From Moniliella sp. 'wahieum' (Eukaryota): 64,000 nucleotides of DNA. The DNA lies in contig RSEE01000004.1 of assembly GCA_003971905.1 (NCBI GenBank), positions 310,001 to 374,000 of the forward strand, in the 5' to 3' direction. Numbering within the stretch: position 1 is the first letter of the stretch; each line of letters starts with the position of its first letter. Under the pieces are notes generated by a model. It saw only the letters and a program-made list of their open reading frames with translations, had not been told where the DNA came from and did not search any database. The position numbers were made by a program, and so were the translations under genes. Of the stretch, positions 1,250 to 64,000 are shown piece after piece.

Positions 1250-3575
1250 ATTCACTAGTATTTATCCCATTGAACCTAATTACTATTACCTTATCCAGCC
1301 TCAATAACACCTTACCCTGCTGGCATTTGTATCCTCTTTGTCTATTACATCCATTCTTGACTTCTACATCTTGCTTGGTACTCCCAGAGCTCAGATGTGA
1401 ACCAGGATAGGAGCTTCCTGTATACCATACTTAAGTCAGGCCTAAGCAAGGTAGGCCAGTGGCAGGCCCAGACTCAAATCCAGTTCAAGGCGGTTTGATG
1501 GCATGATCGGCTCAACAGCCTGAGAAGGGCGCAAGAGAGAGACACTTTCAATATTCATCCTCATTGAGCAAGGCCAAAGGGGGAAAACAGGAAGAGCGAG
1601 ATACGAATTCGAAGTGGAGATCAAGTTGCGAAATACCAATATTTGCTTGGCGCATCATGCACGCATCATTGCGACATGTTGGCGCGGTTCAACTCGTCAC
1701 GTTTACTTTCGCACATCCGCAGATAATGTCTCTCTTTCTCGCGTCTTCTCCGGTCACGGGCTCAAATTTCTCCCCCAGCTGCCAGGATCACTCGCAACAT
1801 GTCTATCGCAGGTCATCGAGTATACGTTGAGGGTAAGATGATGATTGAAGTGGGCGAAAATGCTCCAAGGATGATTGCGACCGCACGTTTTCCATGCGGG
1901 CATTGAATGGCAACCTGGAACAGAGGAACATTGACAACGCATTGCGCCACTTGGAGGACATTATGCTATAGGTATACAGTTCCGATGGGCCTCCTTCCGA
2001 CGTCCCCGAGAACCATATGTGGGCATTGGCATCAGATGCACCTTTTGCACGAGATGGACGAGGATGATCGATGAGCTGTGAGATCGATGAGATCTAATCT
2101 CTCCCTGCTATCACAATGAACGAAAACCTTAATAGTGGCTGCATATACCACAGTGATTCCAACAAAACAGCTCAACCTTCGCTCCATGCCAGTACCACAC
2201 ACACATGTAACAAACTCTAAACCAAAAATCCTCATACACGGCACACAGTCCAGGCCTGATATAGTCGGCTCGGTGTGGTCCTCTTAATCTTGTTGGTAAA
2301 ATGTGGGGAGTGTGTTATAGACGTGTGGGGCGGAAAGACCTTATTTTTGCTTCTCGGTGTCATGACATGCGGGCGCGCGATCGATGGTTCTGTACACAAC
2401 AATCTTCCAATCTGCTGGTCCCTCAGGGCCTGAGCCTCAGGCCTCATCGATCATCTCTATACTGCACCATGATGCCTCCCTCTCCTGGCAGGATTTGATG
2501 CCCCTGAGAGGCCTGAGGCGTCAGGTGCGCATGTATGCTCCGGGGGTTTTTATAGTATTTTGCCGGAGAGCGGGGTGCGCAAAAGGCGTCGAGACCCCCC
2601 CGCTCTCACGAAAACCTGTTGTGACATGTGATCATCGATTATGCAGCCCAACAGAGGCACTGCAACTGGCAACAGAAGTGCGTTTGGGGCTAGCAAGAAA
2701 AAGAGGGGTGTGGTCAGGCTTCAGCCTGCTGCTATATTACCATTGAATATTGACATTAATACGCCCACAGAGGGGGCGATCCATTTGGTGACAAGGGAAA
2801 TATATGGCGTGGAAGAGACCAGTATGAGAGAAAAAATGAGGTGGCAGCGAGAAAAGGGGCCGCGAAAGAGGCATATGTGCAACGGAGCGCACTCTGATGC
2901 CTCGCTGTTCTCCCCATTAAAACTATCAGCCTGGGTTGCTGAGGTGGTAAGGTGTAACCTCAATTGAACTTCAGCAAGAGACTCGCTGGCCCCGCGGCAG
3001 GCTAGGTTATACACTCCATGCCGCCACACACCTCTACTGCCCGTGTGGTTTACGCCTTTTTCGAGCGTTTGGTGCCGAAGGTCATCGGCATGCCGTCGCG
3101 CACGAGAGTAGGAACAACACCCAGCTCGGCACCCGAAACCTCTGCCAGAGCGCGCAGGGACGGTGGGATGTGCGCTGGCCCTAAGCACTTGGTTAATTAC
3201 CGGTTAGTAACCGGCTATAGCCAGACCAACACAGGCAGGGCTTTGCGCAGCCTCGCACAGGGGCGGTCGTGGTGAGTGGTGGCGCAGCGGGAAACACTGC
3301 CCCTGTGCCTGTCTGTGGCGCGCGATTCTTGGAAGTCAATATAGGTGCAAAGCGGGCGTTGGCGTCTTCCCACGTCCCAACCCCTGACGCTTATAACTTC
3401 CCCCATCGTTCTCTTGGTCAATCCTCTTCTCTTCCCCACCACATCTACCCCATCCCCCATCTACTATCCCCCATCACGCCCCCACGACCCTACACGACTC
3501 ACGTTCACGAACCCCCCCTCCACGATTCATCATTCTGCCCCGGTTAAGCACGCACCCGAGCCCGACCGGACGCCC

Positions 3576-6500
3576 ATGCCCCTCCTCTCCCCTGGCCCAA
3601 CGCCGGGCCTGAGGAGGACGCCCTCCCATGGACCTCTCCATGGAAAAGATTGGTGATGCGGCTGTCTCACCTGACAGCCCAAAGCCACCCCCCACAAGAC
3701 CAAAGTGCGTGTGACGGGCACCCCCCAGCGCACCCCCGCTTCCCCCCGTCACCCGCCCGTCAGCGGGCGGACCCCAGGTCATCAGCGCACCCCCTCTGCT
3801 GGCCGCCGTCCCTTACCGCTCCCGCTCGAGCGTCCGCTGCGAAATCCCTTTGCCCAGGGCTCGACACCGGGTATATCCCATGGCCAGACAGAGGGCCGCC
3901 GCTCGTCGACAATGGGCCATCATGCTAGCCACTCTTCCGGTTCTGGCACCAATGGCAACCCTCTCCATGTTTCCGCTCCACGCGCATCGGTTGTCACAGC
4001 GAGTGCGGTTCTTGCTACCGGCACCCCAGCACCCACGGCACGCAAGATCACCAGCTCCATCCCTTCCCACCGTGTCCAACGCAACACCACCAAGCCTGCC
4101 CGCGCCTCGGTACCTCCTGCCTCTGGCCCTGCAGCAGGTGCCGCTTTGACTTCTTCCAAAGAAAGACGAGTTGCAGGAAAGTTGGACAAGGCATTGTTGG
4201 AATTGAGTGAGACCAAAAAGGCCCACCAAGCGGCCTTGGATGAATTGACCCGTCAACACCGTGAGGATTTAGCCCGCACCCGTGCCACTTCCGAGGAGCT
4301 GGAGGCAGCCAAAAAGGCGATCCAAGAAGGCAAGTCAGCTCATGCTCAGGCCGTGAAAGACTTGACCGAAGCCCAAGCCGTTCACCTGCATCAGGTGCAG
4401 GAGGAGCAAGCCCAAGCCTTTCAACTTCTCACAGCAGAAAAGGAGCAGATTGCTGAGCGCTCTAAGGCGGTGGAAGAGAATTTGCAGCAGCCAAAAACGA
4501 GTGTTTGGCCCTGCAAACTGATCGGGAAACTCAACTCGCTTTGTTGAAAGAAGCTCACGAGGCTCAATTGGCTGCCCTGAAGGCTGCTCATGCCGAGTCT
4601 TTGGCTGGGCGCGAGGAGGAAATCGCATCCCTCCGTAAAGAGCTGGAGGTTGTACAGCAAGCGCAGGAACAGTCTAGCAGCGCTGTGGAGGAGCTCAAGA
4701 AACTCACTGCTGCCTACGCTCAAGAGGAAAAGCAGGTTCAAGCAGCGCAGCAAGCGCTACTTGTTGCTGAAGAGGGAAAGAGAAAGAGCGACACCCTTCT
4801 GCTTGAGATGCAGGGTAACGTTCAAACTCTGGAGGCTCAACACGAAGAGCAGCTCTCTGAGATGACCCCCGCCGTCTCGAGAAGGAGCTTACGACGGTGA
4901 AGGAGGCTCTTGCAGAAGCCGAAAAGCAGCATCAACTGACCCTTGCTACTCTCACTGAGGAGAAGGGAAAGTTGAAACCGTGTCGCGAGAGGGTGCAGAC
5001 ACAGTCAGCAGCTGAAACGGCCTCTCTTTCTCTGAAGGCTGCACAGAGCTTGCCACGGTCCAAAAGTCTCACGCTGATGCACTTGCCAAGCTCACAAAGG
5101 AAAACGAGGAAAAGATCCGCACCCTTCTTGAGGGGAAGGACAAGGAAGTTAAGGAGGCAGCCCAAAAAGCTGAAGAACAGCTGCTGCTTGCCCAGGCTAC
5201 TCTACGCTCCGCACAAGAGGAACATGCCCTTACCGCATCCAAACTCGAGGAGGAGCAAGGCTGTTCTTGCTGCACATGTAGAGCAGACGCAAAGCACCGC
5301 CAAGGCTGCCGCGGAAACAGCTGAAAAGGAACTCTTGTCGGCTAAGGATGCCCTCACCCAGGCCGAAGGAGTTTGATACTGCAAAATCCAAAACGGCGGT
5401 GGAACACGAGGTCAGATCAAGCTTCTAACTGAAACTCATGACAAGGCATTGAAAGAGGCACTTGCCAAAGGGGAAGCCGATGTTCATGCTGTTCAGGATG
5501 CCCTTACCATGGCAGAAGAGAAGACCAAGCAACTTGGTCTCGAGTTACAGAGCAAAGAGGAACAGATTCTGCGGTTGACGGAAGCGCAGGAAAACCACAC
5601 TCTTGCCTCAGGAAGAGATCAAGTTGGCCAAGGAAGATGCAGCCTCGGTTCGAGCCGAATTGGATCATGCGTTGAAGGTCTCTGCCGGTCGAGCGGCAGA
5701 TCACCACGCTCACCGCCCTGGACCAGACTGCATCTAAAATTGCCGAGGCTGAACAGGCGGCGAAGGCACTAGCTCAGGATGCGTTCGCCAAGGAATTGGA
5801 AGGCCTGCGGGACACCCTCACTAATGATCACCGGACGGCGCTGGAAGGGCAACGGAGCGAGATGTCTCGACTGCGCCTTGAGTCGAAACCGCGGAGCGGT
5901 TCATGCCAAGGCGCTTCAAGATGCTGAGGCTCAGCGCTCGACCGAAGCCGCAGCCGCCAAAGCCGACCATGACCACGTTCTTCGCAGCTGGAGGAGTCCC
6001 AACAACATTTGGCTATCGAGGAGACAAAGCGGGTTCAGGCTGAGAAAGACCATACCGCCCTTCTTGCTCAGCTGAAGGAGGTCAAGTCGACGTACTTACC
6101 CCCCAGGAAAAGAAGGCACTCGAGGCCCGACTGGCTGCCATTGGCAAGGACCTTTCACAGGCACAGGCCGAGAAAAATAAGTCCGTGCAGGAGGCTGCTG
6201 AGCATATTGCTGCTCTTGAGAAGGCTCGAGATGAGCCGCCGTCCAGGCGGCTGAGAAGCGCGCTCAAGATCAAGAGAATACCCGGATGGTGGTATTGGAA
6301 AAGGAGGGCGTTTGCCGCTGAACTCAAGGAGAAGGAGGCAGTCTTGACGGTATGTCCATTTCGCTTGTGCCCACCCCAAGGGCGAAGAACACTAACAGGC
6401 GATACAGGCAACCAAAGAGCAACTGGCGGATGCATCACAGGAGCGGGACAGTGCCTTGGCCAAGCTTCTTGCGCGAGAGGAACCAGTGGAGGTAAGCCGG

Positions 6501-9500
6501 GTACAATCTGACGACGACCCGGCCGACTTAGTGGAGCAGCATGCACGGCACGTGCGCGAGGTGGCTGCACTGACCAAACCCACGATGCGCGGATCACGGA
6601 GCTGCAACGGCAGCTCCAAGCGGCGCATGAACAGAAGGAGGCGCTGGCGGCAAAGCTCCATGCGGCGCTCGTCGGGCCACCTCCAACACCAACTCCCATA
6701 CCAAGCCCAGCAACGCAGGTGAGTGATTTGTCCAGGAGGCGTGACGCGCGTGTGACGCGTCACCGTGGCTTGCGGCAACTTGAATACTGACGTGGATTTT
6801 GCACCTTCCGCTTTTACCACCACCAGAGTACCGACAAGAAAGATGAGCCCGTTGAGGACACAAGTGTGAAAGTTGCCTCTTTGGCTCATGCCCTGCTCAA
6901 GAACAATGCCGAGGCCGCAGAAGCATCCAAAAGCATCAACAGCCAAATTGAAGACAGGGAACTGAACATTGAGGTCGAACAGGCTACTGGCGCTACGGCC
7001 AAAGAGGCTAATGTTCAGGCTGCTCCCGTTGCCCCCAAGGAGGAGGCCAAGGTCGAGGAGAAACCGGCTGCTCCCAAGGAGGAGGCCAAGGTCGAGGAGA
7101 AGGCTGATGCCACCAAGAAGGAGGTCAAGGTTGAAGCCGCCCCCGCTGCTCCCAAGGAGGAGGCCAAGGTCGAGGTGAAGCCTGCCCCCAAGGAGGAGGC
7201 CAAGGTTGAGGCTGCCCCCGCTGCTCCCAAGGAGGAGGCCAAGGTCGAGGTGAAGCCGGCTGCCACCAAGGAGGAGGCCAAGGAGAAGCCTGCTGCTCCC
7301 AAGGAAGTGAAGGCCGAGGAGAAGCCTGCTGCCCCCGCTGCTCCCATGGAAGTGAAGCCCGAGGAGAAGCCTGCTGCCCCCAAGGAGGAGGTCAAGGTTG
7401 AGGCTGCACCCGCTGCTCCCAAGGAGGAGGTCAAGGTTGAGGCTGGCCCCGCTGCTCCAAGGAGGAGGTCAAGTTTGAGGCTGCCCCCGCTGCTGCCAAG
7501 GATGAAGGCCGAGGAGAAGCCCGCTGCCACCAAGGAGGAGGTCAAGGTTGAGGCTGCCCCCGCTGCTCCCAAGGAGGCCAAGGTCGAGGAGAAGCCGGCT
7601 GCCACCAAGGAGGAGGCCAAGGAGAAGCCTGCTGCTCCCAAGGAAGTGAAGGCCGAGGAGAAGCCTGCTGCTCCCAAGGAGGAGGTCAAGGTTGAGGCTG
7701 GCCCCGCTGCTCCCAAGGAGGAGGCCAAGGTCGAGGAGAAGCCGGCTGCCACCAAGGAGGAGGTCAAGGTTGAGGCTGCCCCCGCTGCTCCCAAGGAGGA
7801 GGCCAAGGTCGAGGAGAAGCCGGCTGCCACCAAGGAGGAGGTCAAGGTTGAGGCTGCCCCCGCTGCTCCCAAGGAAGTGAAGGCCGAGGAGAAGCCTGCT
7901 GCTCCCAAGGCGGAGGTCAAGGTTGAGGCTGCCCCCGCTGCTCCCAAGGAGGAGGCCAAGGTCGAGGAGAAGCCGGCTGCCACCAAGGAGGAGGCCAAGG
8001 TTGAGATTGCCCCCTCTGCTCCCAAGGAAGTGAAGGCCGAGGAGAAGCCTGCTGCTCCCAAGGCGGAGGTCAAGGTTGAGGCTGCCCCGCTGCTCCCAAG
8101 GAGGAGGCCAAGGTCGAGGTGAAGCCGGCTGCCACCAAGGAGGAGGCCAAGGAGAAGCCTGCTGCTCCCAAGGAAGTGAAGGCCGAGGAGAAGCCTGCTG
8201 CCCCCGCTGCTCCCATGGAAGTGAAGCCCGAGGAGAAGCCTGCTGCCCCAAGGAGGAGGTCAAGGTTGAGGCTGCACCCGCTGCTCCCAAGGAGGAGGTC
8301 AAGGTTGAGGCTGGCCCCGCTGCTCCCAAGGAGGAGGTCAAGTTTGAGGCTGCCCCCGCTGCTGCCAAGGAAGTGAAGGCCGAGGAGAAGCCCGCTGCCA
8401 CCAAGGAGGAGGTCAAGGTTGAGGCTGCCCCCGCTGCTCCCAAGGAGGCCAAGGTCGAGGAGAAGCCGGCTGCCACCAAGGAGGAGGCCAAGGAGAAGCC
8501 TGCTGCTCCCAAGGAATGAAGGCCGAGGAGAAGCCTGCTGCTCCCAAGGAGGAGGTCAAGGTTGAGGCTGCCCCGCTGCTCCCAAGGAGGAGGCCAAGGT
8601 CGAGGAGAAGCCGGCTGCCACCAAGGAGGAGGCCAAGGTTGAGGCTGCCCCCGCTGCTCCCAAGGAGGAGGCCAAGGTCGAGGTGAAGCCGGCTGCCACC
8701 AAGGAGGAGGCCAAGGAGAAGCCTGCTGCTCCCAAGGAATGAAGGCCGAGGAGAAGCCTGCTGCCCCCTGCTCCCATGGAAGTGAAGCCCGAGGAGAAGC
8801 CTGCTGCCCCCAAGGAGGAGGTCAAGGTTGAGGCTGCACCCGCTGCTCCCAAGGAGGAGGTCAAGGTTGAGGCTGGCCCCGCTGCTCCCAAGGAGGAGGT
8901 CAAGTTTGAGGCTGCCCCGCTGCTGCCAAGGAAGTGAAGGCCGAGGAGAAGCCCGCTGCCACCAAGGAGGAGGTCAAGGTTGAGGCTGCCCCCGCTGCTC
9001 CCAAGGAGGCCAAGGTCGAGGAGAAGCCGGCTGCCACCAAGGAGGAGGCCAAGGAGAAGCCTGCTGCTCCCAAGGAAGTGAAGGCCGAGGAGAAGCCTGC
9101 TGCCCCCAAGGAGGAGGTCAAGGTTGAGGCTGCCCCCGCTGCTCCCAAGGAGGTGAAGGCCGAGGAGACGCCTGCTGCTGCCAAGGAAGTGAAGGCCGAG
9201 GAGAAGCCGGCTGCCCCCAAGGAGGAGGTCAAGGTTGAGGCTGCCCCCGCTGCTCCCAAGGAGGAGGTCAAGGTTGAGGCTGGCCCCGCTGCTCCCGGAG
9301 GAGGCCAAGGTCGAGGAGAAGCCGGCTGCCACCAAGGAGGAGGTCAAGGTTGAGGCTGCCCCCGCTGCTCCCAAGGAGGAGGTCAAGGTTGAGGCTGGCC
9401 CCGCTGCTCCCAAGGAGGAGGCCAAGGTCGAGGAGAAGCCGGCTGCCACCAAGGAGGAGGTCAAGGTTGATGCTGCCCCCGCTGCTCCCAAGGAAGTGAA

Positions 9501-12500
9501 GGCCGAGGAGAAACTGCTGCCCCCAAGGAGGAGGTCAAGGTTGAGGCTGCCCCCGCTGCTCCCAAGGAGGACGCCAAGGTCGAGGAGAAGGCTGCTGCCA
9601 CCAAGGAGGAGGCCAAGGAGAAGCCTGCTGCTCCCAAGGAAGTGAAGGCCGAGGAGAAGCCTGCTGCCCCAAGGAGGAGATCAAGGTTGAGGCTGCCCCC
9701 GCTGCTCCCAAGGAGGCCAAGGTCGAGGAGAAGCCGGCTGCCACCAAGGAGGAGGCCAAGGAGAAGCCTGCTGCTCCCAAGGAAGTGAAGGCCGAGGAAA
9801 GCCTGCTGCCCCCAAGGAGGAGGTCAAGGTTGAGGCTGCCCCCGCTGCTCCCAAGGAGGAGGTTAAGGTTGAGGCTGCCCCCGCTGCTCCCAAGGAGGAG
9901 GCCAAGGTCGAGGAGAAGCCGGCTGCCACCAAGGAGGAGGCCAAGGAGAAGCCTGCTCCCAAGGAAGTGAAGGCCGAGGAGAAGCCTGCTGCCCCCAAGG
10001 AGGAGGTCAAGGTTGAGGCTGCCCCCGCTGCTCCCAAGGAGGAGGCCAAGGTCGAGGACAAGGCTGATGCCACCAAGAAGGAGGTCAAGGTTGAAGCCGC
10101 CCCCGCTGCTCCCAAGGAGGAGGCCAAGGTCGAGGTGAAGCCTGCTGCCCCCAAGGAGGAGGCCAAGGTTGAGGCTGCCCCCGCTGCTCCCAAGGAGGAG
10201 GCCAAGGTCGAGGTGAAGCCGGCTGCCACCAAGGAGGAGGCCAAGGAGAAGCCTGCTGCTCCCAAGGAAGTGAAGGCCGAGGAGAAGCCTGCTGCCCCCG
10301 CTGCTCCCATGGAAGTGAAGCCCGAGGAGAAGCCTGCTGCCCCCAAGGAGGAGGTCAAGGTTGAGGCTGCACCCGCTGCTCCCAAGGAGGAGGTCAAGGT
10401 TGAGGCTGGCCCCGCTGCTCCCAAGGAGGAGGTCAAGTTTGAGGCTGCCCCCGCTGCTGCCAAGGAAGTGAAGGCCGAGGAGAAGCCCGCTGCCACCAAG
10501 GAGGAGGTCAAGGTTGAGGCTGCCCCCGCTGCTCCCAAGGAGGCCAAGGTCGAGGAGAAGCCGGCTGCCACCAAGGAGGAGGCCAAGGAGAAGCCTGCTG
10601 CTCCCAAGGAAGTGAAGGCCGAGGAGAAGCCTGCTGCCCCCAAGGAGGAGGTCAAGGTTGAGGCTGCCCCCCTCCCAAGGAGGTGAAGGCCGAGGAGACG
10701 CCTGCTGCTGCCAAGGAAGTGAAGGCCGAGGAGAAGCCGGCTGCCCCCAAGGAGGAGGTCAAGGTTGAGGCTGCCCCCGCTGCTCCCAAGGAGGAGGTCA
10801 AGGTTGAGGCTGGCCCCGCTGCTCCCAAGGAGGAGGCCAAGGTCGAGGAGAAGCCGGCTGCCACCAAGGAGGAGGTCAAGGTTGAGGCTGCCCCCGCTGC
10901 TCCCAAGGAGGAGGTCAAGGTTGAGGCTGGCCCCGCTGCTCCCAAGGAGGAGGCCAAGGTCGAGGAGAAGCCGGCTGCCACCAAGGAGGAGGTCAAGGTT
11001 GATGCTGCCCCCGCTGCTCCCAAGGAAGTGAAGGCCGAGGAGAAACCTGCTGCCCCCAAGGAGGAGGTCAAGGTTGAGGCTGCCCCCGCTGCTCCCAAGG
11101 AGGACGCCAAGGTCGAGGAGAAGCCGGCTGCCACCAAGGAGGAGGTCAAGGTTGAGGCTGCCCCCGCTGCTCCCAAGGAGGAGGTCAAGGTTGAGGCTGG
11201 CCCCGCTGCTCCCAAGGAGGAGGCCAAGGTCGAGGAGAAGCCGGCTGCCACCAAGGAGGAGGTCAAGGTTGATGCTGCCCCCGCTGCTCCCAAGGAAGTG
11301 AAGGCCGAGGAGAAACCTGCTGCCCCCAAGGAGGAGGTCAAGGTTGAGGCTGCCCCCGCTGCTCCCAAGGAGGACGCCAAGGTCGAGGAGAAGGCTGCTG
11401 CCACCAAGGAGGAGGCCAAGGAGAAGCCTGCTGCTCCCAAGGAAGTGAAGGCCGAGGAGAAGCCTGCTGCCCCCAAGGAGGAGATCAAGGTTGAGGCTGC
11501 CCCCGCTGCTCCAGGAGGAGGCCAAGGTCGAGGAGAAGCCGGCTGCCACCAAGGAGGAGGCCAAGGAGAAGCCTGCTGCTCCCAAGGAAGTGAAGGCCGA
11601 GGAGAAGCCTGCTGCCCCCAAGGAGGAGGTCAAGGTTGAGGCTGCCCCCTGCTCCCAAGGAGGAGGTTAAGGTTGAGGCTGCCCCCGCTGCTCCCAAGGA
11701 GGAGGCCAAGGTGGAGGAGAAGCCGGCTGCCACCAAGGAGGAGGCCAAGGAGAAGCCTGCTGCTCCCAAGGAAGTGAAGGCCGAGGAGAAGCCTGCTGCC
11801 CCAAGGAGGAGGTCAAGGTTGAGGCTGCCCCCGCTGCTCCCAAGGAGGAGGCCAAGGTCGAGGAGAAGCCTGCTGCTCCCAAGGCGGAGGTCAAGGTTGA
11901 GGCTGCCCCCGCTGCTCCCAAGGAGGAGGCCAAGGTCGAGGAGAAGCCGGCTGCCACCAAGGAGGAGGCCAAGGTTGAGATTGCCCCCTCTGCTCCCAAG
12001 GAAGTGAAGGCCGAGGAGAAGCCTGCTGCTCCCAAGGCGGAGGTCAAGGTTGAGGCTGCCCCCGCTGCTCCCAAGGAGGTGAAGGCCGAGGAGACGCCTG
12101 CTGCTGCCAAGGAAGTGACGGCCGAGGAGAAGCCGGCTGCCACCAAGGAGGAGGTCAAGGTTGAGGCTGCCCCCGCTGCTCCCAAGGATGTGAAGGCCGA
12201 GGAGAAGCCGGCTGCCACCAAGGAGGAGGCCAAGGAGAAGCCTGCTGCTCCCATGGAAGTGAAGGCCGAGGAGAAGCCTGCTGCCCCCAAGGAAGTGAAG
12301 GCCGAGGCGAAGCCTGCTGCTCCCAAGGAGGAGGTCAAGGTTGAGGCTGCCCCCGCTGCTCCCAAGGACGAGGCCAAGGTTGATGCTGCCCCCGCGCTGC
12401 CCACGGAAGTGAAGGCCGAGGAGAAGCCTGCTGCCCCAAGGAGGAGGTTAAGGTTGAGGCTGCCCCCGCTGCTCCCAAGGAAGTGAAGGTCGAGGAGAAG

Positions 12501-19931: not shown

Positions 19932-20032
19932 TGATGCATGACGCATGCAGCCAATCGATCATCATGCATGTCATGCATCATGCACATCATGCATGTCATG
20001 CATCATGCACATCATGCATCATGCATCATGCA
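19932..20032. repeat. Imperfect (TCATGCA)n heptamer palindrome array
   Basis: tgatgcatga at 19932; tcatgcatcatgca runs at 19971-19984, 19996-20009 and 20012-20032. Confidence 0.9.
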
Positions 20033-44798: not shown

Positions 44799-46041
<1,243 letters not shown>

Positions 46042-46125
46042 CTACTACTATAGAGTGAGAGCGTGCTCGTGACACACAGAGTTACAACCACAAGAACGCA
46101 TGTATGCAAAGTGCGGGGAACCACA

Positions 46126-50505: not shown

Positions 50506-50577
50506 AACTAAGGCCAATAACCGCACAGAATCGTCGTCACAAAGTCGGAGAACGGAGGAAAAAGGACAGGCTATCCA

Positions 50578-52110: not shown

Positions 52111-53956
52111 CTTCGTTGTGTCCTATATTGTGCCCGCCAAAGCGACTACAACTCTATAAGGAGAAAGGGACAGAGCACAGGTTTGAAGTTGAATGGCGAC
52201 GTTATTCGAAAAGCAGTTGGTTTTTCCTGTTGCGCTCCGGACCCTCCGACGGAGAGTATTCAATGCGGTTCCTTGCAACAAGGGCTAGTGGTGTTTCTAT
52301 GGGGAATACCGCGTGAGGATGATCGATGACCGGTGACCGGGGAACTCACCGATGAACGGCGGTCGACCAAAAGCGCTCCGATCGCAGTACAAGCTGAAAA
52401 CGCTTTTTCTTGTTCTCAGCGCTTCCGGCATCGCCGTGTGACATGGGCATCACATGTAACGCGTAACAATATTGCAAAACAAGTGGTGCACTCCCGACGG
52501 GATGAGGTCGATGAGGGGCTGTATGCCGATGATCGATGAGCATAGCCGGAGACTAGCTCGCTCGCTTGTGCCCGTTGAGCTCACCATTGTCCACAAACCA
52601 CCACGACCACCGAGAGCCACCTGAGGTTGAACGCGTATGCAATCCACGCGTAGCTTTCATTGAAGGACCCAGCATGGTCACTTCTCCCGGGCAACAACGG
52701 AGGATGAAAGTCCCAACCCAGTTTCCGCGGGCAACCAAGGCCGGCGTGCAACGTGCCACCAGTCCACCAGTCCACAAGCCCAGAAGTGCACAAGTCCAGA
52801 CCATATTGCATGTTCTTGCCAGGGTGAAACCAGCAGGGGGGGGGGTTCACGTCGATGTGATTGCTCTCATGGATCGCAGGTCTAGGATGAATGGTTGGGA
52901 GACATGGGGGTGCAGATGCGCCACTTCTTGGGCGGAGTGTTTGGCAAAGACGTCGCTCGCGTCACTGGGCGTATTTATGGCCACCCATATGGCCGCAAGC
53001 TGGCACCACGGTCCCTGGGATCGCGATGATTCTAGAGGGAAGAGGTGCAATGGCACATTTTAGAGGTGGTGGTGGTCTAAACCAATAAGACACCTACCGA
53101 GGGACACCCTGCAGTAAGTCTCCACCGGGTCTGGCCGCAGAACTGAGAAGACGGAAACAAGAAAACAGTGGAGCTTCCAGGCCTGAAGGGATGTTGACCA
53201 ACCGCACGAGCCACCCGGCACGAATTCGTGGTGGATGCCTATCCTTCTCGCTGATTTGACGGTAACAGGACGTGGTGTGCGTGTATCCTCTCAACGGCCT
53301 GTTGGGACACCTGTTGTCGTGCAACATAAGCGTGCCTGTCATACGCCTAACTATCCTCATATGCTCATCTGATACGCTCCCAATCCGCCAAGGTACGCCG
53401 ATTATCACAGGTCAACGTAGTACTATATCACAGCTATGTGCATATCTGATCGAAAACCCGTCTTTTTGATTCTTAAGTGCAGACTGGAAACTTTGGGAAC
53501 AGCAACCGCGGTCGGAATGATGGAGAATGGAGGTTGCCCCTCCTTCCACTGCGAAAGGGGGGGTGCGAATCAGAAGGGTATTCGGAGATGTCGACTTTGC
53601 GGCGGTTGAGATTAGCCTTGGTGAAGCTGGGAGACATGACCCCGCTGTGGAAGATGGTACAGGGGACATGGACCTGTCTACTCGATTCAATGGAATGAGA
53701 CTATACAGCGGAAACGCTGGATCTATTTAAAGAGAGCGGGGCTAAACACCGGCACGTCAGGATTGTACACGCAGCGCACAAGCGCCACGAATCGATTACG
53801 ATCACGAGGTGTGGGCATCGGTGCGGTAGGCAGGGAAGAAATCTCAGCCGTAGAAAGGAACGTTCAGCAGAGCGAAACGTATTTAAGAGAGGAGCAGGGG
53901 GATGAAAACATGGGGTAACGAGAAGCAAGAGAAAGGTCCAAGTAAGGACGACAGGT

Positions 53957-56034
53957 TTACTCCTTCTTCTCCTCAGCGTTGGGGCTGCTGGCTCTCGGCG
54001 TTGCGCTTCTCGTAAATCTGCTTGAAGAGGCCGAGCGAAGCTTGCTGGGTCTCGTTGATCTGTTCCCGCACTTGGTCGGGGGTGATGTCCGAGTCGCCGT
54101 TCTGGGCCTTGGCAGCCAGCTCCTCCGTCTTCTTGATGAGCTCGTTGAGCTTGTCCTTCTCCTCCTGGGGAAGCTGGTCGGCGAACTCGCCCAGAGCCTT
54201 GGAGGTCTCGGCGCACACACCCTGCGCACGGTTCGCCTCCTCGATCAACTCCTTCGCGCCTTGTCAGCCTCGGCGTGCTTCTCAGCATCTTGCACCATGT
54301 CTCAATCTCCGAGTCAGACAGACCCGACGAGGCAGCAACAGTAATGTTGGCGTCCTTGCCGGTGGCCTTGTCCTTGGCGCTGACGGAAAGGATACCATCG
54401 GCATCAATGTCAAAGGTCACCTCGATTTGAGGCACGCCACGAGGGGCGGGAGGAAGGCCGCCAAGGTTGAAGTTGCCGAGGAGCTTGTTGTCCTTGACAA
54501 GCTCGCGCTCGCCCTGGTACACCTGGATCTCCACCGCAGTCTGGCCATCCGCGGCAGTCGAGAAGATCTGCGACTTCTTGGTCGGGATGGTGGTGTTGCG
54601 GTTGATGAGACGAGTGAAGACGCCACCAAGAGTGTTGATACCCAGCGACAGAGGGGTCACGTCGAGGAGGAGAATGTCAGTCACATGACCCGAGAGGACA
54701 CCACCCTGAATGGAAGCGCCGATGGCAACAGCCTCGTCGGGGTTGACACCCTTGCTAGGGTCACGCTTGAAGATATCCTTGACCGTGGTGAGAACCTTGG
54801 GCATACGGCTCATACCACCAACCATGATGACAGCGTCAATGTCCGAAGGCTTGGCACCAGCGTCAGCCAGGGCCTTCTTGCAGGGCTCAACCGTGCGTTC
54901 CACAAGCTTGCCGACGAGCACCTCGAGCTGAGTACGAGTGAGCTTCTGGTTGATGTGCTTGGGGCCGCTAGCATCGGCGGTGATGTAGGGCAGCGAGATC
55001 TCGGTCGAGGGGGCGGACGAGAGCTCAATCTTGGCCTTCTCCGCGGCCTCACGAATACGCTGGATGGCCATGCGGTCGCCCGACAGATCAATGCCGGACT
55101 CCTTCTGGAACTCCTGGACAAGGTGCTCAACAAGCACAATGTCAAAGTCCTCACCACCCAGGTGAGTGTCACCGTTGGTCGACTTGACCTCGAACACGCC
55201 GTTCTGCATCTCGAGGATCGACACGTCAAACGTACCGCCACCCAAGTCGAAGACAGCAATCGTCGCCGCCTCGTTCTTGTCAAGACCGTAGGCGAGGGCA
55301 GCAGCAGTAGGCTCGTTGATCACACGCAGCACGTCGAGACCAGCAATGGTACCAGCGTCCTTGGTGGCCTGACGCTGCGAGTCGTTGAAGTAAGCAGGCA
55401 CAGTAATGACGGCGTGCTTGACGGGCTTGCCGAGGTAGGCAGCAGCAGTTTCCCGCAGCTTTCCGACAACAAACGCACCAATTTGCTGGGGCGAGTAGTT
55501 CTGGCCGCGCACCTCGAGCCACGCGTCGCCGTTGGAGTGGGCGACAATCTTGTAGGGAACGTTCTTAATGTCCTTTTGCACCTCAGCGTCCTTGAACTTG
55601 CGACCAATCAAACGCTTGGTGGCAAACAGAGTAGCCTCGGGGTTGACGACGGCCTGACGCTTGGCAGGCACACCAACCAGGCGCTCGTTGTTCTTGGTGA
55701 ACGCAACGACCGAAGGGGTGGTGCGGCCACCCTCCTCGTTTTCAATCACACGGGCTTGTTGGCCCTCCATGATGGAAACGCACGAGTTCGTCGCTGTGAA
55801 TTGTAGCAGAAATAGTCAATATCGGAGCAAAGAGAAAGGGAGGGGTGGGGCATTAGGATGATACGCACTGCCAAGGTCGATACCGATGACGGGGCCGCTG
55901 ACCTTGCCGGTGGAGTTGAAGCGCACAGCACCAAGACGGGCGGCATTAAAGGGGGCAGCGGATGCGCCAGCCGAGCGAGCGGCCAGGAGGCGAGCCGATG
56001 GGAGTGCAGCCTGGCGGAGGGTGCGGGCGAGCAT
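53957..56034 (-). CDS. SSC1: Mitochondrial Hsp70 (mortalin)
   Basis: Arg/Ala-rich presequence [20 protein letters not shown]. Intron 55794-55868 joins VIGIDLG-TTNSCVS. Motifs [27 protein letters not shown] and [13 protein letters not shown]-terminus AEEKKE* reached through frameshifts. Confidence 0.96.
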
Positions 56035-57145
56035 GATGGGGGTGGAAGAAGTGGTGGTCGTGATGCCAACCCGAAGCTTGGCCAGCCGCGCATTAAAGAC
56101 GCCCCAGCTCTTGAAGCTTCAAGCTTCACCTGTAGAATAGAAGGAACGGGCAGGATGGAAGAGCGGACACTGCCCCGTGCTCAAGTGCGGGGCGGCGGAA
56201 TGAAGCGGAATCCAAGTGAACACCGGAACCGAAGCAGGTTTGAAGCACGGCGTCTGTGTAGTGGGCACCGAACCGGCCTTGGCGTCATTATTCTTCGGTG
56301 CAACCCAGACTCATTTAATTGTTTCTGGCGGCACGCAGCGAAAGCTTCTACAGAAGCTGGGTGCTGTCCAACAGGACTGTGTGGGAGGGGCATATCTCGA
56401 AATCAAGATGCGATCAGCACAAAAGGTTGGAATACATGCGGCTGCAAGAAGTGCCAAAAACGCAAAGGAAAGAGGACAGCCGCTTTCGGTACATCGGCCT
56501 CTTCTGGTGTAGGGCGAAAGATTTCCAATGAGAGTATAATTGCACCCAAGAAAACGATGGCTTTTATTGACACAATTGAGATGCTGTGTGTCATGTTGTG
56601 CTTTGTTTAACGTTTACGTCCTTCCAAAATGTGTAGAGCGTCCCTCCATCTCCATAGTTGGGAAAAGGGATGGGATGCAGATTATGCCAGTGGGCAGAGT
56701 AATGCCCCCGTCATATGCAATCCATCACCCAGAGAGAAGATCGAATGCCCGGCACGCACACATGTGTAATGGGCGGTTAATTGGTATGCAATTGCTTGAC
56801 AACTCAGGCAGCACCGGCATTACGGCAACAAGGCTCTTGGCCTCGGTCGTGTACGCGCCGTAGTCGCAATCGCCCCCCGAAAGGTATGTGCCGCGCAAGC
56901 CATTGATATTGACTGCCTTAAGATCGACTTAGACGACCTATGCGGGGCGGTTGGGCGGAATGCGACTTCCGTGAGAGTGGTCACCGGTCACCGGTCACCG
57001 GTCACCGACCACATACCACACACACGCATGACAGGTCAGGCGTCGGCTCGTGGTTGATATTTTTTTCGGCAGAGGATATTGGGAGGCCCCACAGCAATTT
57101 GGCATCGTTTGTGGGTGCCTCTGCCCCCTCTGGGGCTTCTCCACC

Positions 57146-58642
57146 ATGGCCGTTTCCACTCTGCGCAAATCGACCGGCGCTCCGGCGGGGAAGAGCGGAT
57201 CGCGGAAGACCAAGACTGCCTGGCGCAAAAACATCGATCTTACCGATGTCGAAGCCCACCTCGAAACGACGCGCGCTGCCGAGCGCGGCGACACTACTCG
57301 CTCTTCTCCATGGACACCCAGGGCGATTCGGCGCTTCGCCCCAACGGCCCGCGGCCCCTCAAGTCGCTCGACATTCTCCAAAACAAATCCGCCGTACCCG
57401 CTGTCACGCACTTGCGTGGCCGAAGAAACGTGGTGAGCGCGGCTGACGATGCGGATGCGGTGGCTCGCTTGCGTCGGGCGGCGTGCCAGCCAAAAAAGTG
57501 CGTGACCGTCTGCGTCGGGCAGCGGGCAAGGTGGTTACCGATGCAATGGGCGGGATAAGCAAGGCGGACCAGGACAAGCTGCAGGATTACCGCGGGGTTG
57601 ACCGGGTGGCTGATCGGGACTTGTGGGCCGACGAGGGGCGGAGGAGGGTCCGAGTGCACCAACTCGAATCAATTATGATCCTGAGTGGGTCGCCGACCCG
57701 AGGGATGAGAAGCCCAAGCCCCCCAAGTCGCTCTCGGCGGCCATGGAAGATATGCGCTCGGCGCTGGGAAAAACCCACAAGGCCAATGCGGGGCATGAGC
57801 AAGTTGTATTGGCGCGCAAGCTGGCTGCTGTACCTCTCCCTCACCCAGGCATGTCGTACAACCCCGAGGCCGAGATCCACGAGGCGCTCATAAATAGAGC
57901 ATTTGTGGTGGAGATGGCTCAGGCGCAGGAGGGATGCGAACGACAAGGTGCGGGCGTTGTGGGAAAAAATGAGTGCTGCGGAGCGGGCAGAAGTACTTGC
58001 CAGCAATGGCGCTACTGCTACCTCTTATCGGGGGATGCAGATTGATGTGCCACCGGAAGAATCCGAGTCCGAGTCGGAAGCCGAGGCAGAAGCGAGGCAG
58101 AATCGGAGATGGACCACGAAGTGGCGCTGTTGAGGGAACAACAGCGCCAAAAAGCCATCAAGGGCAAGCGTAAGACTACCGCTCAGCGGCATCGTCATGC
58201 TCGGGCTCGGGCCCAGATGCATTTGCACCACGAGGCCAAATCGTACAACCGGTACATGTCGGCCATGCCAGGCAAGTTGCGCGAGACATCGGAAGTGGAT
58301 GCAATGTCCCGGGCCCGACTGCTGGCGGCACAGCGCCGGCGTGAGGCCAAACTGGCGATCCTAGCCAAGACGGGGATGAAGGGGCAGAAGGTGGCGGGCC
58401 AGAGGCTCGATGACTATGGGACAAGGACACGATAGCGTCCAATTGCCTGAACACTTGTCGGAAAACTTGCGCGCCATGAAGACCGAGGGCAACTTATTCC
58501 GCGAACGCTTCCAGTCGTTGCAGACCCGTGCTCTTACGGAGCCAAGCGCACCATCTCGGCTCGTGAGCTGAAAAAGGCTAAGGACTCACGCAACTACGGC
58601 TGGAAGGAAGTTGAGCGGTTCGCCTTCAAGAACTTTCAGTGA
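57146..58642 (+). CDS. NOP53: 60S ribosome biogenesis factor Nop53 (GLTSCR2/PICT1)
   Basis: SRKTKTAWRKNIDLTDVE, AIM-like LFSMDTQGD, PLKSLDILQNKSAVPAV, PHPGMSYNP, and C-terminal VQLPE..LRAMKTEGNLFRERFQSLQTR. Confidence 0.9.
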
Positions 58643-58983
58643 TAAGTGCTGCCGCAGGCTATACATGTATTTCGTTCATTTCGTACGCAATGGGCTAACA
58701 TATGTTCTGGCACCGGTATGTGCCTTGCAGGCTGGGAGGGGGAAAGATGCGAGAATGAATTGAGAGAGCATGACTGTCCTGAACAGGGCAACAAAAGCCA
58801 GACCATTTGACCCGGAGCATGAAAGAAAAAAGAAACGGGGAGAAAAAAGTGTTCGGGAGGGCTATGTCCACGCAGATGAAGAACCGGGGGTATGGATGGT
58901 GTTGAGAAAGGCATACAAACTGAAGCCTTGACTCGTAATGCATAATGCCTCGGGGCAAAAAAGGGCGTGGAATAGGGAGGGCG

Positions 58984-61900
58984 CTACTTGACCTCCAGAT
59001 CACCAAAGATATGCTCCACGTCCGGCCACTCGGCGGCTGCCTCGTCTTGCGCTTGGAAGCGCAGAGCGCCCACCTTCTCGCGGGTCCAATACGTGGGCAC
59101 ATTCGGCGCCTTGCCTGACAGAGAGCGGGAAGGCTGCCCGTGTCCTTGGGACACGATAGGGTCAAATACACGACGATCGTAAGGTTGCTTATGGGGTGCC
59201 CAAAGGGTGTCCCGTGAGTCAGGATCGATGGTGCGGGTGAACCAGCGAGGCTTATGCGGGGGCATTTCGCCCGCTTCTCGCTTCCGTCGTGTGCCCGTTG
59301 CAGCTCCTCCAACTCAATCTTAAGAGTGTTGGCGTCCTCGAATCGGCCTGTTTCAAACGCACGTAGATCGGGCCGCAAGCGGCAATCGGTGGGAGGCAAC
59401 CAAAGATGCAGCCCCTTGGGCAAGTCATTGAGCGTGATCGCAAATGGCGGTAAGTTCTGTATCATCGTCAGCACGCTGCCAGGGAACAACAGGGACAGGA
59501 AGGAAGAGAAACGTACGAAGGGAGCCGGTGGCTTCTCACTATTCTTCCATAGTAGGAGGTACTTGGCCTTCTCTTCAGGCTTAGTTCCAATGGGGGCGGA
59601 TGTTCGAACAGCGTGGTCAGGATTGAGTTCGCCCACATCCGTGCCAATGCGTCGAGCAACCAGTTGGGAATTCCATCTCCCAGCAATCTCCCAGCGAAGG
59701 TTCCCCTGGGCATCGTACACGGCACCTTTGATACCATACGCGTCCTTAGAGCGCCAGCCACGCTGCTTAAACGTGAGCACACACCTGTCGCCTGTTGCGT
59801 GGTTGATCACCTCCATGTCGCCAAAGTGATCGATAGTTGTTTGGCCGATCAGGAAGCCACTAACACACGTCGTAACCTTGTTCCATGTGTAGTGCTCAAA
59901 GTACTTGGGCGGCTCATCGGGCCCAAGGATACCTGGCTGTGGCTCCACTGACGCCAATTTTTCCTTGGTCCACGACGCCTCGGCCCAATCCCGTGGTACT
60001 TTGAGGTTGGCGTGCGCCACCCCCGTTGGGCGAATCTCGAACGTCCTCCCAAGGAACTTGGACTTGGCATCAACACAGCCAAAGTATTGCCATCCAGGAG
60101 ACTCGGCAAAGCAAGCCGAGATGGGCGGATGGTGGGAGACTTGCTCGCTCAAGTAGCGGAATTCCTTGCTACGAGAGACGTACTCAAACGTCTCCCCCAA
60201 CATGGGGTTGAACGGCTTGGCAATCCGGCCAATGGTGGACGAGTAATTGGACATGGCGAATGCTGCCACATAGGCGATCCGCTTGGTTGAATCTTCGGTG
60301 CGCGACGCAGCGTCGAGGCACTCGCTGAATTCCATATCCTCCGCCATACGCTGGAGCATCGAGGTGGGTTCGTTGAACGAAACTGGAAAAGAGATCTTGG
60401 TCAAGTCCTTACCAATGTTGTTCCTCAGAACGCCCCAGAGTGACACTGAGGGCCGCACATCTCGTCCGATTGGCATCTCGTGTCGGACGTGGTCATATGG
60501 CTTGATCCCCTCCATGTGGATCAGACTCGGGTCAATCTTTTGAAGCTCCGATGGGGGCTCGGTAAGTTGCGACTCGACCGTCACATTGGCCAATGTGCCC
60601 CGTTCCACAGCGTCGTAAAACTCATCTTCCGAATCCGATGCTTCCTCTCCCGCAAGACCAAGGGCACCTTTTCCGGCCTGAAGGGACGGCCGTTCCAAAG
60701 AAGCTTTCGGTGTTTCCTGCGTCACGTTGGTAGTGGCATTGTCCTCGGACACGGGGGCATATCAGCGCCGACTGGGGTACGGAGAGCCAGCTGGTTGCGG
60801 AGCTCCTTGATCGTCCTCCGTTTCTGTGCTCCGTCGTCCGTCAGACGGGCGAGATTGTGCTCCATCTGCTCGTACTGCTTAGCCAGAGTCTTGAGGTTCT
60901 CCTCCCACAGAAGTTTGGCCGATATCTCTTGGCTGTAGCGGCGGCGGAGGTACGCTTCCCTTCTCTCAACCGACTGATACTGCGCCAAGAGATCGACGAT
61001 CGAGATCAAGTCGTCCCGAATGGCCAAACGAGTGGACAGTGTATCGACAGGCCCACCATCCGACACAAGTCCACCGTCCGAATCGCGCAAGATTTCCGTC
61101 CCATTCGCACAGCGATCTACCATTAACTCGGAAAGAGCCTTGGCCAGCTCAGCACGAGTGGTAAGCGAATTGGTGAGCAAAGAAAACTCATTGTCGAGGG
61201 TAGACCATCCTGCATCAACTTGGGATTACTCGCGTTGGACTTGCCATACAAGTCGCCCGTCATTGTGCTTCCATGATCTTCGCCATAGAGAAGAGATGCA
61301 TCGTCCGCCTCCCTGGATCATGTGGTGGGGTCAAGTCCGTACCCGTGTATGACACGGCATAATTCTCGTACCTAGAGGCAGGCGTAAGGGCCCGTATCAC
61401 TCCGCTACTCTTTCCCCCATCGCCAGACATCGACGAAAAGGAGGGGAACGCAATGGGAGAAGAGATCCGGCTTGGGGTTTTGACCCTGCTGGTGATGCTG
61501 CTGGCTATACGGGACAAACGGTTGCCGGTCGCCGAGGCTGGGCGGGTGGGAAGTGGGGCACTAGTAACATCCTGGGACTTAGGTCCGCTTTCCCCGCCGG
61601 ACAAAGACGGAAAACCTCCGTTACCGTAACCGACACTGGTGTCCGCGCCCTATATTGAACTGACCAATCGTCGTCGGGTTCGCCACAGATGCCACCCTGG
61701 GCTTGGGTGCTACAATAGGGGGTTGCTGGTAGGGGGAGTGTTGGCGGTTGGCGACCTGGGTGAGATGGAAGGATGAAGGCTGGACGGTGCAGAACCACCA
61801 ACGAGGGGGACCTGGAGGCTGAGGCTCGGCCTTGAAACAGGTGATGCTCTCCGCATTCCAGGACCAGGTTCGAGATTCTCGCCCAACTCTTGCGGGTGAG

Positions 61901-63250
61901 CGCGGAAGTAGGCTTGCGTCTGGAACAAAAGCTGGACCCAACGGGCGCGTTCGGCCGGGTGGGATCCACGCAGCAAGAGTTTCGAGTCGACGACGCCCTT
62001 CTTGCCTGGCTCGGACAGAACCTCAAATCGCAATGGGTCAGACGGGTCTGCATTCACGGTCGCGTACTGCAGGTTAATCGAACCGCGAATCTGGCGACCT
62101 TGGTCCGATGGCGAGTGGTAGTAAGACAGGGCACCGTTCTCTAGAACAAACCACCGGGGCTTGTACCGCATATTGGTCAATTTCCCCAGCCAGCCTTTGA
62201 ATGAGGGTGGTTTGATGGGGCCCGGCGACTGTTCATTTGGAACAGGCTCAAATTGGCGTTGCCCAGTTGACGCAAGAGGGCACGGAGACGCTCGTCCTTG
62301 GTGGCTTCCAGACACGGCTGGCCGTCCCTGTCACCAGCAAAAACATCGGCCCCCTTGGCGGCGGCCAACTCGATCATGGCAGTGTCCTTGTAGCGGACTG
62401 CAGCATGAAGCAAGGTGCCACCCGTCTCTGGCGAAGGCGCGTTGAGATCAAGGGCGCGGTACCGGTTGAGCGTTAGCAAATCGGTCAGCTTGTAGGCACC
62501 TTCCTCGCGGGATGTCTCGTATAAAGTGAGCGCACGAAGGAAGGAGGCGTTGAGTTCGGCACGGGACACTTGGAACAAGCTCGCGATGCCAGGGTTGGCG
62601 GCGACCTCCATCGGCTCTTGGCCTTGGTAGTTGCGGATCAAGTCGTCAATGTCGCGGCGCTGGAGCAGCTCTTTATGGCATCGGAACGTCCACAAATGCT
62701 AGCAAGGTGGAGAGGCGTGTTACCATGCTGGATTTCCTGAGTGTTGACGTCGAGGTCTTGGTACTCAGCATGCGAGCAATGGTGGTGTCCTCGGCACAGC
62801 GCATGGCAAGATGGAGGGGCGAGGTGAGCTCGGTGACTTCGGCGGCGGGTACGATGCCGATGGAATCGGAAGGGAGGGGGGGCAGGTCAGTGTTGACAGA
62901 ACTGGCTGTGTTGGCACGCTTGCGGGTTTTGCGAGCAATGTGACGTGCGCGAAGAAGGAAAGGCTCGAGGACCTGCGGGTCGCCGGTGCGAAGGGCGTCG
63001 AGAAGCTTGAAGGAATAAAGGGTGTCGTTGACGCGTACACTCGCCGCCCGTGAAGGAGCAGCAGGAGCAGAATCGGGGGAAGCATCGGGGGCAGGGCTGG
63101 GGCAGAGTCGGGCGGCATCGGCGAGGGGTTGGTCACACCAGCGCCTGCTTCATGCTCCTCCGGCACGAGGGGGGGGTGGGAGCCACGGCGTGGGCTGGGG
63201 CGGGTGTTGATGGCCTGGCGGCTGGCGCGGTGGCGCATCTTGCTGTACAT
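58984..63250 (-). CDS. Long oxysterol-binding protein (Osh1/Osh2-type: ankyrin + PH + FFAT + ORD)
   Basis: Ankyrin-like TSPLHLAMR and GGTLLHAAVR; PH domain KGWLGK..RWFVLENGALSYY..RGSINL; FFAT motif SDSEDEFYDAVE; DLTKISFPVSFNEPTSMLQRMAEDMEF; OSBP fingerprint EQVSHHPP. Intron 59457-59516. Confidence 0.93.
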
Positions 63251-64000
63251 GGCCGCCGCGCAGAGGGGGTGGGGAGGAGGGGGTGATGGATGGCGATGGG
63301 GGCGATGGGCGATGGGGACGACGGCGGGCAGGCAGGCTCAACTCAGCATGGAGCTGGCTGTGCTGGCTGCTGGCCACCGTCCTGCGGATCTGAGATCTGA
63401 CGGGCTGACCGATGAGCACGAGTGAGCGCTGAGCCTCAGCGGTGTGCTGGACGGGCAGCTCAGCGTGGCTGGCGCCCTGCCGAGCCGCGCCTTCAGCGTG
63501 CATGCACCCATGTCACATGTCAGCCTGCTTAGCTTGGGCTCAGCGTGCGCGCGTGACGCTGAGCGCCCGGCCGCCTCAGCCCTGGCGAGCTCAGCCACGC
63601 AGTAACTCAGCGCTCCGCTGGCTAGTGGCTCAGTGTTGTTAACTGTGTTGAGACTCACGGAGTGCCTGGTGTTGTGTGGGCCTGCAACCAGGTCCCACCC
63701 ACCAGTTACTAGTAACTAGTAGCCCAGTCCCAGCGCCATCCCAGTGCGGCACTCAGACCGCGCACCCACCCGACCCCCCAGCCCCCGCCACGCGCGCGGC
63801 GAGCGCGTCGCTGACATCATCCTCTCTCCCGCCGCACAAAGGCGCTGCTGCTCCGTGGCCTGTTCTGCCTCAACCAACGCGCCGCGTTCTCGGCATCCAC
63901 CACGCCTGGTGATGGCCCGACGCGGCAACCCTGGCCAGCACCGCAGATCATGCATCATGCATCATGCATGTGCACCATGCCCCATAGCATCATGTGACTC

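Follow-up and report, generated by a model that had tools for sequence, protein, structure and literature searches.

We examined a 64-kb window of Moniliella sp. 'wahieum' (GenBank assembly GCA_003971905.1, contig RSEE01000004.1, positions 310,001 to 374,000 of the forward strand), which has a G+C content of 57.6% and carries a set of eukaryotic genes. A map of open reading frames (ORFs) and Pfam domains places in it genes for an HSP70, an oxysterol-binding protein, an alanyl-tRNA synthetase, a PRMT, a TCP-1 protein, a mitochondrial carrier, Nop53, an RNA polymerase subunit, a Zn2Cys6 factor and an EF-hand protein. The closest named relatives of two of the window's proteins fall within the Ustilaginomycotina, namely Pseudozyma flocculosa for one (61%) and Moesziomyces antarcticus together with Testicularia cyperi for the other (74%), which places the fungus among the basidiomycetes, within or close to the Ustilaginomycotina. 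Scans of the window against Rfam and for tRNAs gave no match. By the same map, in which introns are not set apart, 17,720 nt (28% of the window) are intergenic, and this DNA is dotted with a short element in which two T-N-A trinucleotides enclose a 4-bp palindrome of varying identity. All window counts given here refer to this one stretch.

The four central bases are palindromic in 60 of the 212 TSA-N4-TSA sequences (S, G or C) in the window. With tandem copies collapsed, these TSA-type palindromic 10-mers occupy 35 loci, compared to an expectation of 3.6 10-mers at 3.6 loci from 100 dinucleotide shuffles (maximum, 10). When TWA sites (W, A or T) are added, the total comes to 80 10-mers at 47 loci, with 6.5 and 6.4 expected, respectively (shuffle maximum, 13 loci), which corresponds to a density of ~2.6 loci per kb of intergenic DNA. 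An earlier reading of the window from its letters (here, the sequence-only reading) had proposed such an excess of palindromic TSA-N4-TSA, and the excess proves stronger than it claimed. The coordinates it listed all hold, except that its position 30187 is 30186. It had also suggested scanning spacer lengths and comparing intergenic with genic DNA. Among spacers of 0 to 10 nt, an excess is seen at 4 only, and lengths of 2 and 6 nt show no enrichment (observed versus expected, 18 versus 28 and 3 versus 2), while 75 of the 80 10-mers lie in the intergenic DNA. Likewise, TSA-to-TSA distances of 7 nt number 86 in intergenic DNA, where they form a peak in the histogram, versus 26 in genic DNA, where there is no peak.

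The pattern is specific to T-N-A. In a scan of 32 trinucleotide classes, TSA, at the fraction given above, and TWA, at 10 of 24, stand out; the next class is GAT/ATC (12 of 76), and C-N-G, G-N-C and A-N-T centers are at background level. Palindromes in general are not in excess in the window, with 870 palindromic hexamers versus 928 expected. Hexamers of the form A-NNNN-T do exceed expectation (251 versus 162.5), and this surplus is accounted for by the 80 in which position -2 is T and position +2 is A. Fourteen of the 16 palindromic tetramers occur as cores, fairly evenly, which upholds the argument of the sequence-only reading that one slipping microsatellite or one transcription factor motif is insufficient. 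Its statement that no AT-only cores occur was mistaken, as ATAT is found three times, TTAA twice and TATA once.

Raw counts of TNA-N4-TNA are raised by TCAAGGTTGA, a sub-repeat of a giant gene-like repeat, which was left out of most tests. This giant repeat (6791-17035, plus strand) contains ~263 tandem 39-bp units at 72% identity (7025-16909), each coding for a 13-residue unit rich in Pro, Ala, Lys and Glu, and has no Pfam family.

We next consider what the 10-mer is part of. The N in the two TNA trinucleotides is identical in 64 of the 80 10-mers and complementary in 6, with some other mismatch in the remaining 10, and therefore the 10-mer is mostly part of a 7-bp direct repeat and not a palindrome. 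Exact identity at period 7 has its mode at 5 nt (lengths 3, 4, 5, 6 and 7 were seen 3, 2, 16, 7 and 7 times, with arrays up to 22). For isolated 10-mers with the same N (n = 27), identity extends by 2 nt on the left only in 13, on the right only in 9, on neither side in 5 and on both sides in none (Fisher p = 0.00058). Thus, in 22 of 27 isolated cases, half of the filler corresponds to the 2 nt flanking one of the TNA trinucleotides. The left- and right-extended forms are reverse complements of each other and so represent a single canonical 12-mer. The true unit is this 12-mer, D-P-D, where D is TNAxy and P is y'x', the reverse complement of the xy that ends D. Perfect D-P-D 12-mers number 71 copies at 33 loci, compared to 0.22 expected (200 block shuffles; maximum, 2). 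On the plus strand, TNA begins 35 of 51 D5-P2-D5 matches, and P lengths of 1 or 3 are not enriched. The sequence-only reading, which took the palindromic 10-mer as the unit, was correct about its excess and missed this 12-nt direct-inverted-direct structure; among its candidate explanations, a localized template-switch process in open intergenic DNA comes close to the anatomy that we observe.

The position of the unit relative to TNA is likewise constant. All seven two-copy cases (run length 7) are in register (0,4) or (4,0), beginning exactly at T or ending exactly at A, and therefore the structure's boundary is fixed directly 5' of T. Registers (2,2), (1,3) and (3,1) are absent, and arrays also start at T or end at A. 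Direct repeats of TNAxy are frequent at distances of 7 (79) and 14 (30) and, secondarily, at 9 (42) and 8 (21), whereas distances of 5 (7), 6 (7) and 10 (4) do not rise above background. Many of the distance-9 repeats can be read as a 7-nt form to which a duplicated dinucleotide has been added. Bases inverted on the TNA end occur at the level of chance (2 of 36). Among isolated 10-mers with different N (n = 12), 6 have no flank extension and are background-like, and 4 of the extended copies differ by a transition.

Two loci use a single TNA on both sides. At 2435..2455, CC-TCA-TC would have given rise to two 12-mers with a common TCA, CCTCA GG CCTCA and TCATC GA TCATC, and at 52318..52340, GATGA TC GATGA and TGACC GG TGACC likewise have a TGA in common. 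These compound loci fit a symmetric site at which the event is one-sided. Separately, approximately six D-P-D structures are built at TGG/CCA and not at TNA (26796, 63619, 26666, 19424, 38349 and 20165), among them TGGCT AG TGGCT (twice) and CCATC GA CCATC (twice), which suggests that TGG/CCA is a near-cognate secondary site.

Several simpler schemes were considered and rejected. An independent target preference of two half-sites predicts matches on both sides, which occur in 0 of 27 isolated cases, and period-5 duplication without a filler is seen in 7 cases, approximately the number due to chance. Solo odd palindromes of the form y'x'TNAxy, as a precursor pool, show only a mild excess (86 outside 10-mers versus ~60 expected overall). 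Stop codons in three frames as a selected feature can be dismissed by reasoning, as an array has TGA on one strand only and the palindromes would go unexplained.

One possibility is that the element arises through ordinary microsatellite birth and slippage that favors hairpin-capable heptamers, with no site-specific event. Consistent with this, 13 of 17 period-7 rows reported by Tandem Repeats Finder are rotations of TNA plus a palindromic tetramer in head-to-tail copies, and G+C-rich cores are found in the longest arrays. When folded as single strands, the arrays form hairpins in which the palindromic tetramers pair as stems around three-base TNA loops, and folding z-scores are -5.0, -2.9, -2.7, -2.6 and -2.1 for five of eight stretches folded. 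Ogata and Miura are also said to have observed that polymerase elongates palindromic repeats via hairpins in vitro. However, slippage should produce runs of at least 7 nt in any register, while we find a mode of 5 anchored at TNA, with none of the 27 isolated cases in register (2,2). It also does not account for the restriction to T-N-A, since the C-N-G, G-N-C and A-N-T centers at background are equally hairpin capable, or for the lack of enrichment of even-length palindromic units (spacers of 2 and 6). We therefore judge slippage without a site-specific event to be quite improbable. Slippage as a contributor is another matter: arrays of 12, 19 to 20 and 25 to 26 nt match (D P)nD while those of 28 to 29 nt do not do so exactly, and hence slippage is probably also active.

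The perfect copies are distributed along the window. Near its start, single 12-mers lie on the minus strand at 2063..2074 (GATGA TC GATGA, D-P-D being read on that strand), 2620..2631 (core CATG) and 2742..2753 (AT-only core ATAT), in addition to the compound locus at 2435..2455. Between 17 and 20 kb, there are minus-strand 12-mers at 17548..17559 (core AGCT), 19002..19013 (GATGATCGATGA, then TGAGGCCTCA) and 19570..19581 (core CCGG) and plus-strand 12-mers at 18608..18619 (TAATT AA TAATT, a TWA site with core TTAA) and 19686..19697 (core TATA). At 19971..20030, TCATGCA units are found inside a 25-bp tandem repeat (19960-20033; 3 copies, 96% identity), which is composed of these units and TG or CA joints and whose last copy is one dinucleotide short.

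The loci occupy spacers of every arrangement: a convergent 3' spacer at 26.1-27.6 kb, divergent promoter spacers at 30.0-32.7 and 55.8-57.0 kb, and tandem spacers. Within the convergent spacer, a 26-nt array, (D P)x3 D, in which D is TCACC on the minus strand (GG TGACCGG x3 TGA), forms a hairpin with a TGA loop at 26369..26394. It is followed by the 12-mer TCTCAGATCTCA and a mixed TCACGCG/TCACATG array (26697..26746), by (TCACTAG)x4 and then (TGACCGG)x3 (26869..26927; single-strand fold of -18 kcal/mol, z -5.0) and by TGAAGCT x2.4 (27117..27133). Heptamer arrays are most densely clustered between the arms of a ~95-nt inverted repeat (26527-26623 and 26947-27040; ~87% complementary). This inverted repeat has no match to an RNA family or tRNA, and its arms show no 7-nt presence/absence difference. 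In the first divergent spacer, 12-mers are found at 30184..30195 (GATGATCGATGA, minus strand), 30466..30477 (TCACT AG TCACT, plus), 30807..30818 (TGATT AA TGATT, plus) and 30995..31006 (core CTAG, minus), and 31090..31135 contains TGAGA TC TGAGA as well as a TTACGCG array (31116-31135).

Farther along, a minus-strand 12-mer (core AGCT) at 33479..33490 lies 36 nt past the stop of the EF-hand ORF, and a TCACCGG array (D P D P D) and a plus-strand TCATC GA TCATC are located at 34196..34214 and 38289..38300, respectively. (TGACGCG)x4 lies upstream of the mitochondrial-carrier gene (49678..49705), and the compound locus at 52318..52340 is followed by another minus-strand GATGATCGATGA (52528..52539). 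The second divergent spacer holds TGAAGCTTCAAGCTTCA on the minus strand at 56112..56128, with its 12-mer at 56117-56128, and a minus-strand TWA site with core ACGT (56605..56616); (TCACCGG)x3.9 sits at 56979..57007 in the divergent promoter region between HSP70 and Nop53. The plus-strand 12-mer TAATG CA TAATG (58936..58947) is in the stop-to-stop frame of the oxysterol-binding gene, past its Pfam domain. The last copies are at 63389..63400 (core GATC, minus strand), 63423..63434 (TGAGC GC TGAGC, plus), 63511..63522 (core CATG, minus) and 63948..63969 (TCATGCA array).

In a side observation on the HSP70 gene, the frame antisense to it (54016-55803, plus strand) is open for 596 codons and matches the Pfam family NAD-GH (PF10712; E = 5e-144), which we take to be an artifact family built on the antisense strand of HSP70 genes.

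A further 14 loci, spanning 848..63715, have 10-mers but no perfect 12-mer (positions 848, 1436, 1548, 3197, 6753, 19150, 19559, 19932, 30453, 30867, 32291, 38336, 43138, 44911 and 63706). Chance hits and decayed copies are mixed among them, and those at 6753, 30867 and 63706 are full palindromes; 10-mer copies at 2632, 30453, 32291 and 38336 have decayed with N changed by a transition. More generally, 71 windows satisfy all nine constraints of the 12-mer (0.25 expected), 68 satisfy eight (8.2 expected) and 217 satisfy seven (109 expected), the lower classes being made up partly of 'wrong-side' windows of good elements. This decay series favors the view that the copies are aging scars. Point-mutational decay also argues against an artifact of assembly, polishing or base calling, as do the confinement of the pattern to intergenic DNA and the fact that we know of no sequencing error mode that yields 5 direct plus 2 inverted nt at TNA; such an artifact is very improbable.

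Excision footprints of cut-and-paste transposons that duplicate a 3-bp TNA target (PIF/Harbinger- or IS5-like) would resemble these copies. Excision of such an element that leaves the duplicated TNA plus two terminal nt from each inverted end produces TNA, a 4-bp palindrome and TNA, a 7-bp footprint, and Tc1/mariner footprints with the form duplication, palindrome, duplication are textbook examples. In agreement with this, the TNA pair are direct copies with the same N in most cases, the gain is exactly 7 bp, and an intergenic location suits many DNA transposons. There is also a precedent in the rice miniature inverted-repeat transposable element mJing, for which the accessible part of one report describes an excision in Arabidopsis that left a TAA duplication plus two element nt (PMC6850418). 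However, the filler left by a transposon family should be constant, whereas that in the window is of 14 kinds and is templated by the 2 neighboring host nt in 22 of 27 isolated cases, which retained element ends cannot give. Moreover, the window contains no TNA-flanked inverted-repeat element, the only four hits being the arrays themselves, and domains of transposase, integrase or reverse transcriptase were found in none of the 150 longest ORFs. Taken together, these observations make transposon footprints an unlikely source of the element.

Two other classes of known structure share part of its anatomy. P-nucleotide footprints, such as those of hAT, Transib, Mutator and CACTA transposons and of V(D)J coding joints, contain a spacer-free palindrome, half of it inverted from the adjacent flank, between direct copies of the target. 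P nucleotides are typically two in length, and the Transib/RAG target duplication is 5 bp. These footprints have P at either or both ends, variable in length and with nibbling, whereas the element in the window always has 2 nt with no nibbling. Its inverted bases are found away from TNA, its target starts with TNA, and no transposon was found in the window. DUP-TRP/INV-DUP rearrangements and small inverted triplications are similar in being direct-inverted-direct, and the element has two copies of TNA and three of xy, of which the middle one is inverted. Inverted triplications formed by template switching at replication forks are on the scale of ~150 bp in the accessible part of one study (PMC13334657) and can extend to megabases, in contrast to 2 to 5 nt here. 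The element also differs from them in having no spacer at the turn, in its tie to one trinucleotide and in showing no microhomology at the return junction (register (2,2) in 0 of 27).

The element thus has parts of P-nucleotide footprints, of retained-termini footprints and of inverted triplications and misses a defining feature of each. A literature search, with supplements outside its scope, found no published description of the D-P-D rule, and six literal array strings matched only in two unrelated papers. From the accessible parts of the respective reports, the 'palindromic microsatellites' of Fusarium mitochondria (PMC7218506) and Replitrons (bioRxiv 2022.12.15.520654) are different things.

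As a control, metagenome contigs were scanned with TSAYCGRTSAYCGRTSAYCGRTSA, which consists of three TSA-YCGR units, yielding at least 120 loci, mostly prokaryote-like. Like those in the window, the metagenome heptamer arrays consist of 7-bp units between genes and have hairpin potential, and one unit, TGACCGG, is identical. Unlike those in the window, they show no preference for palindromic cores: among the matches listed, arrays were uniformly CCGG in 28, TCGA in 15, TCGG in 40 and CCGA in 21 and mixed in 16, that is, 43 uniformly palindromic versus 61 uniformly non-palindromic. In the window, CCGG and TCGA cores account for 18 loci, with one non-palindromic YCGR case noted (63406). Neither a multi-core grammar in the flanks nor a fungal relative was found among the matches listed, and those loci of at least 1 kb had densities of 0 to ~1 locus/kb, with the exception of one AT-rich contig (L056) at 1.9. 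In six gene-dense prokaryote-like contigs (L110, L081, L082, L031, L049 and L086), TGACCGG/TGACCAG runs lie just after genes. The runs in L110 and L081 form long inverted pairs, another difference from the window, and one pair in L110 flanks an apparent tRNA-like stretch.

Given this anatomy, we rate as evenly balanced the proposal that the pattern is the scar of a recurrent, site-specific 7-nt micro-insertion and not a protein-binding code. An event at an intergenic T-N-A would convert TNAxy into TNAxy-y'x'-TNAxy, and the 7 nt gained would comprise a direct re-copy of 5 nt (TNA and its two neighbors) and the inverted complement of those 2 neighbors. In the product, xy/y'x' would be a spacer-free palindrome and the whole a miniature 'duplication - inverted triplication.' The event would begin with a nick or break 5' of T, and the 2 inverted nt would derive from a hairpin or U-turn intermediate, in which a hairpin-capped or turned-around end is opened or copied. 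The site would be symmetric, with either side of one TNA able to fire. Repeat events or replication slippage could then build (TNAxyy'x')n arrays, whose units, as pal4-TNA-pal4 mini-hairpins, would favor further expansion and escape from loop repair. A looped-out 7-nt unit, being itself a mini-hairpin, would aid fixation and expansion; in yeast, palindromic loops reportedly escape mismatch repair (Nag, White and Petes).

What kind of agent might write such a scar? Complementarity combined with free base identity indicates copying or pairing of nucleic acid, rather than a protein reading the duplex. Because there is no spacer between xy and y'x', a single strand folding back cannot make the palindrome, and two strands are needed. 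Two such routes are established, namely the off-center nicking of a covalently closed hairpin end, as for P nucleotides, and the turning of a polymerase onto the other template strand. The 5-nt direct repeat could reflect fill-in of a 5-nt staggered break or religation of a displaced 5' end after 5-nt strand displacement. Candidate agents would be a transposase-like or 5'-attaching nuclease or a turn-around at the replication fork.

Several points weigh against the insertion proposal. The insertion is read from anatomy within a single 64-kb window, and we know of no enzyme or repair pathway that gives exactly 5 + 2 nt at T-N-A and in every case places the inverted part away from TNA. For three of the eight stretches folded, stability does not exceed that of shuffles. 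Among the 68 one-off copies, the two palindrome constraints are violated less often than any other (2 and 4 times), and GATGATCGATGA or its reverse complement accounts for seven copies among the 33 loci (2063, 2444, 19002, 30184, 38289, 52318 and 52528). The well-kept palindrome or the recurrence of GATGATCGATGA could mean that selection on a functional motif, instead of neutral scarring, is at work. G follows five of the seven GATGATCGATGA copies to give CGATGAG, which occurs 10 times in intergenic DNA and is presumably the PAC core of ribosome-biogenesis promoters of yeasts. TCATC is, however, the commonest TNAxy word (61 of 1,817), and a hot spot is therefore an alternative explanation of the GATGATCGATGA recurrence.

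The corresponding rival is that the heptamers, or the hairpins and cruciforms they form, are selected cis-elements, bound or read as marks of promoters, terminators, insulators or origins, perhaps by proteins responding to shape or extruded hairpins and not to sequence. Beyond the well-kept palindromes and the possible PAC core, the strictly intergenic location and the significant folding of some arrays would fit such a role. Nevertheless, 14 complementary cores of free identity could not be read by a protein contacting the duplex, the minimal 12-mer would have a stem of 2 bp, and nothing about binding motivates a one-sided 2-nt extension in a fixed register. The elements also flank genes on the promoter side as well as the 3' side, a single spacer can hold both orientations, and the elements show the decay series described above. 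We consider selected cis-elements unlikely. The same observations, together with full dyad symmetry in only 6 of the 80 10-mers and the same N in 64, leave without support two candidates of the sequence-only reading, a symmetry- or shape-reading system and a family of dimeric readers.

If the element records a micro-insertion, it would rank among the sharpest sequence-specific indel signatures in a eukaryote, at a density here of approximately one scar for every 500 bp of intergenic DNA. Such a signature would show the birth, and not merely the expansion, of hairpin-forming microsatellites, and it would point to a nuclease or repair route capable of generating spacer-free micro-palindromes. 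The rule TNAxy to TNAxy-y'x'-TNAxy is so simple that its matches could be counted in any genome. The process underlying the element has a real chance of being new. We lean against, while taking seriously, the broader possibility of an undescribed process of DNA writing in this fungal lineage, in which a nuclease, a domesticated transposase or a fork turn-around would act at T-N-A in open intergenic chromatin, add exactly seven bases each time and continually seed hairpin-forming heptamer microsatellites. Such a process would constitute a new enzyme-specific signature that shapes promoters and terminators genome-wide and would provide a steady supply of new promoter and terminator sequence.

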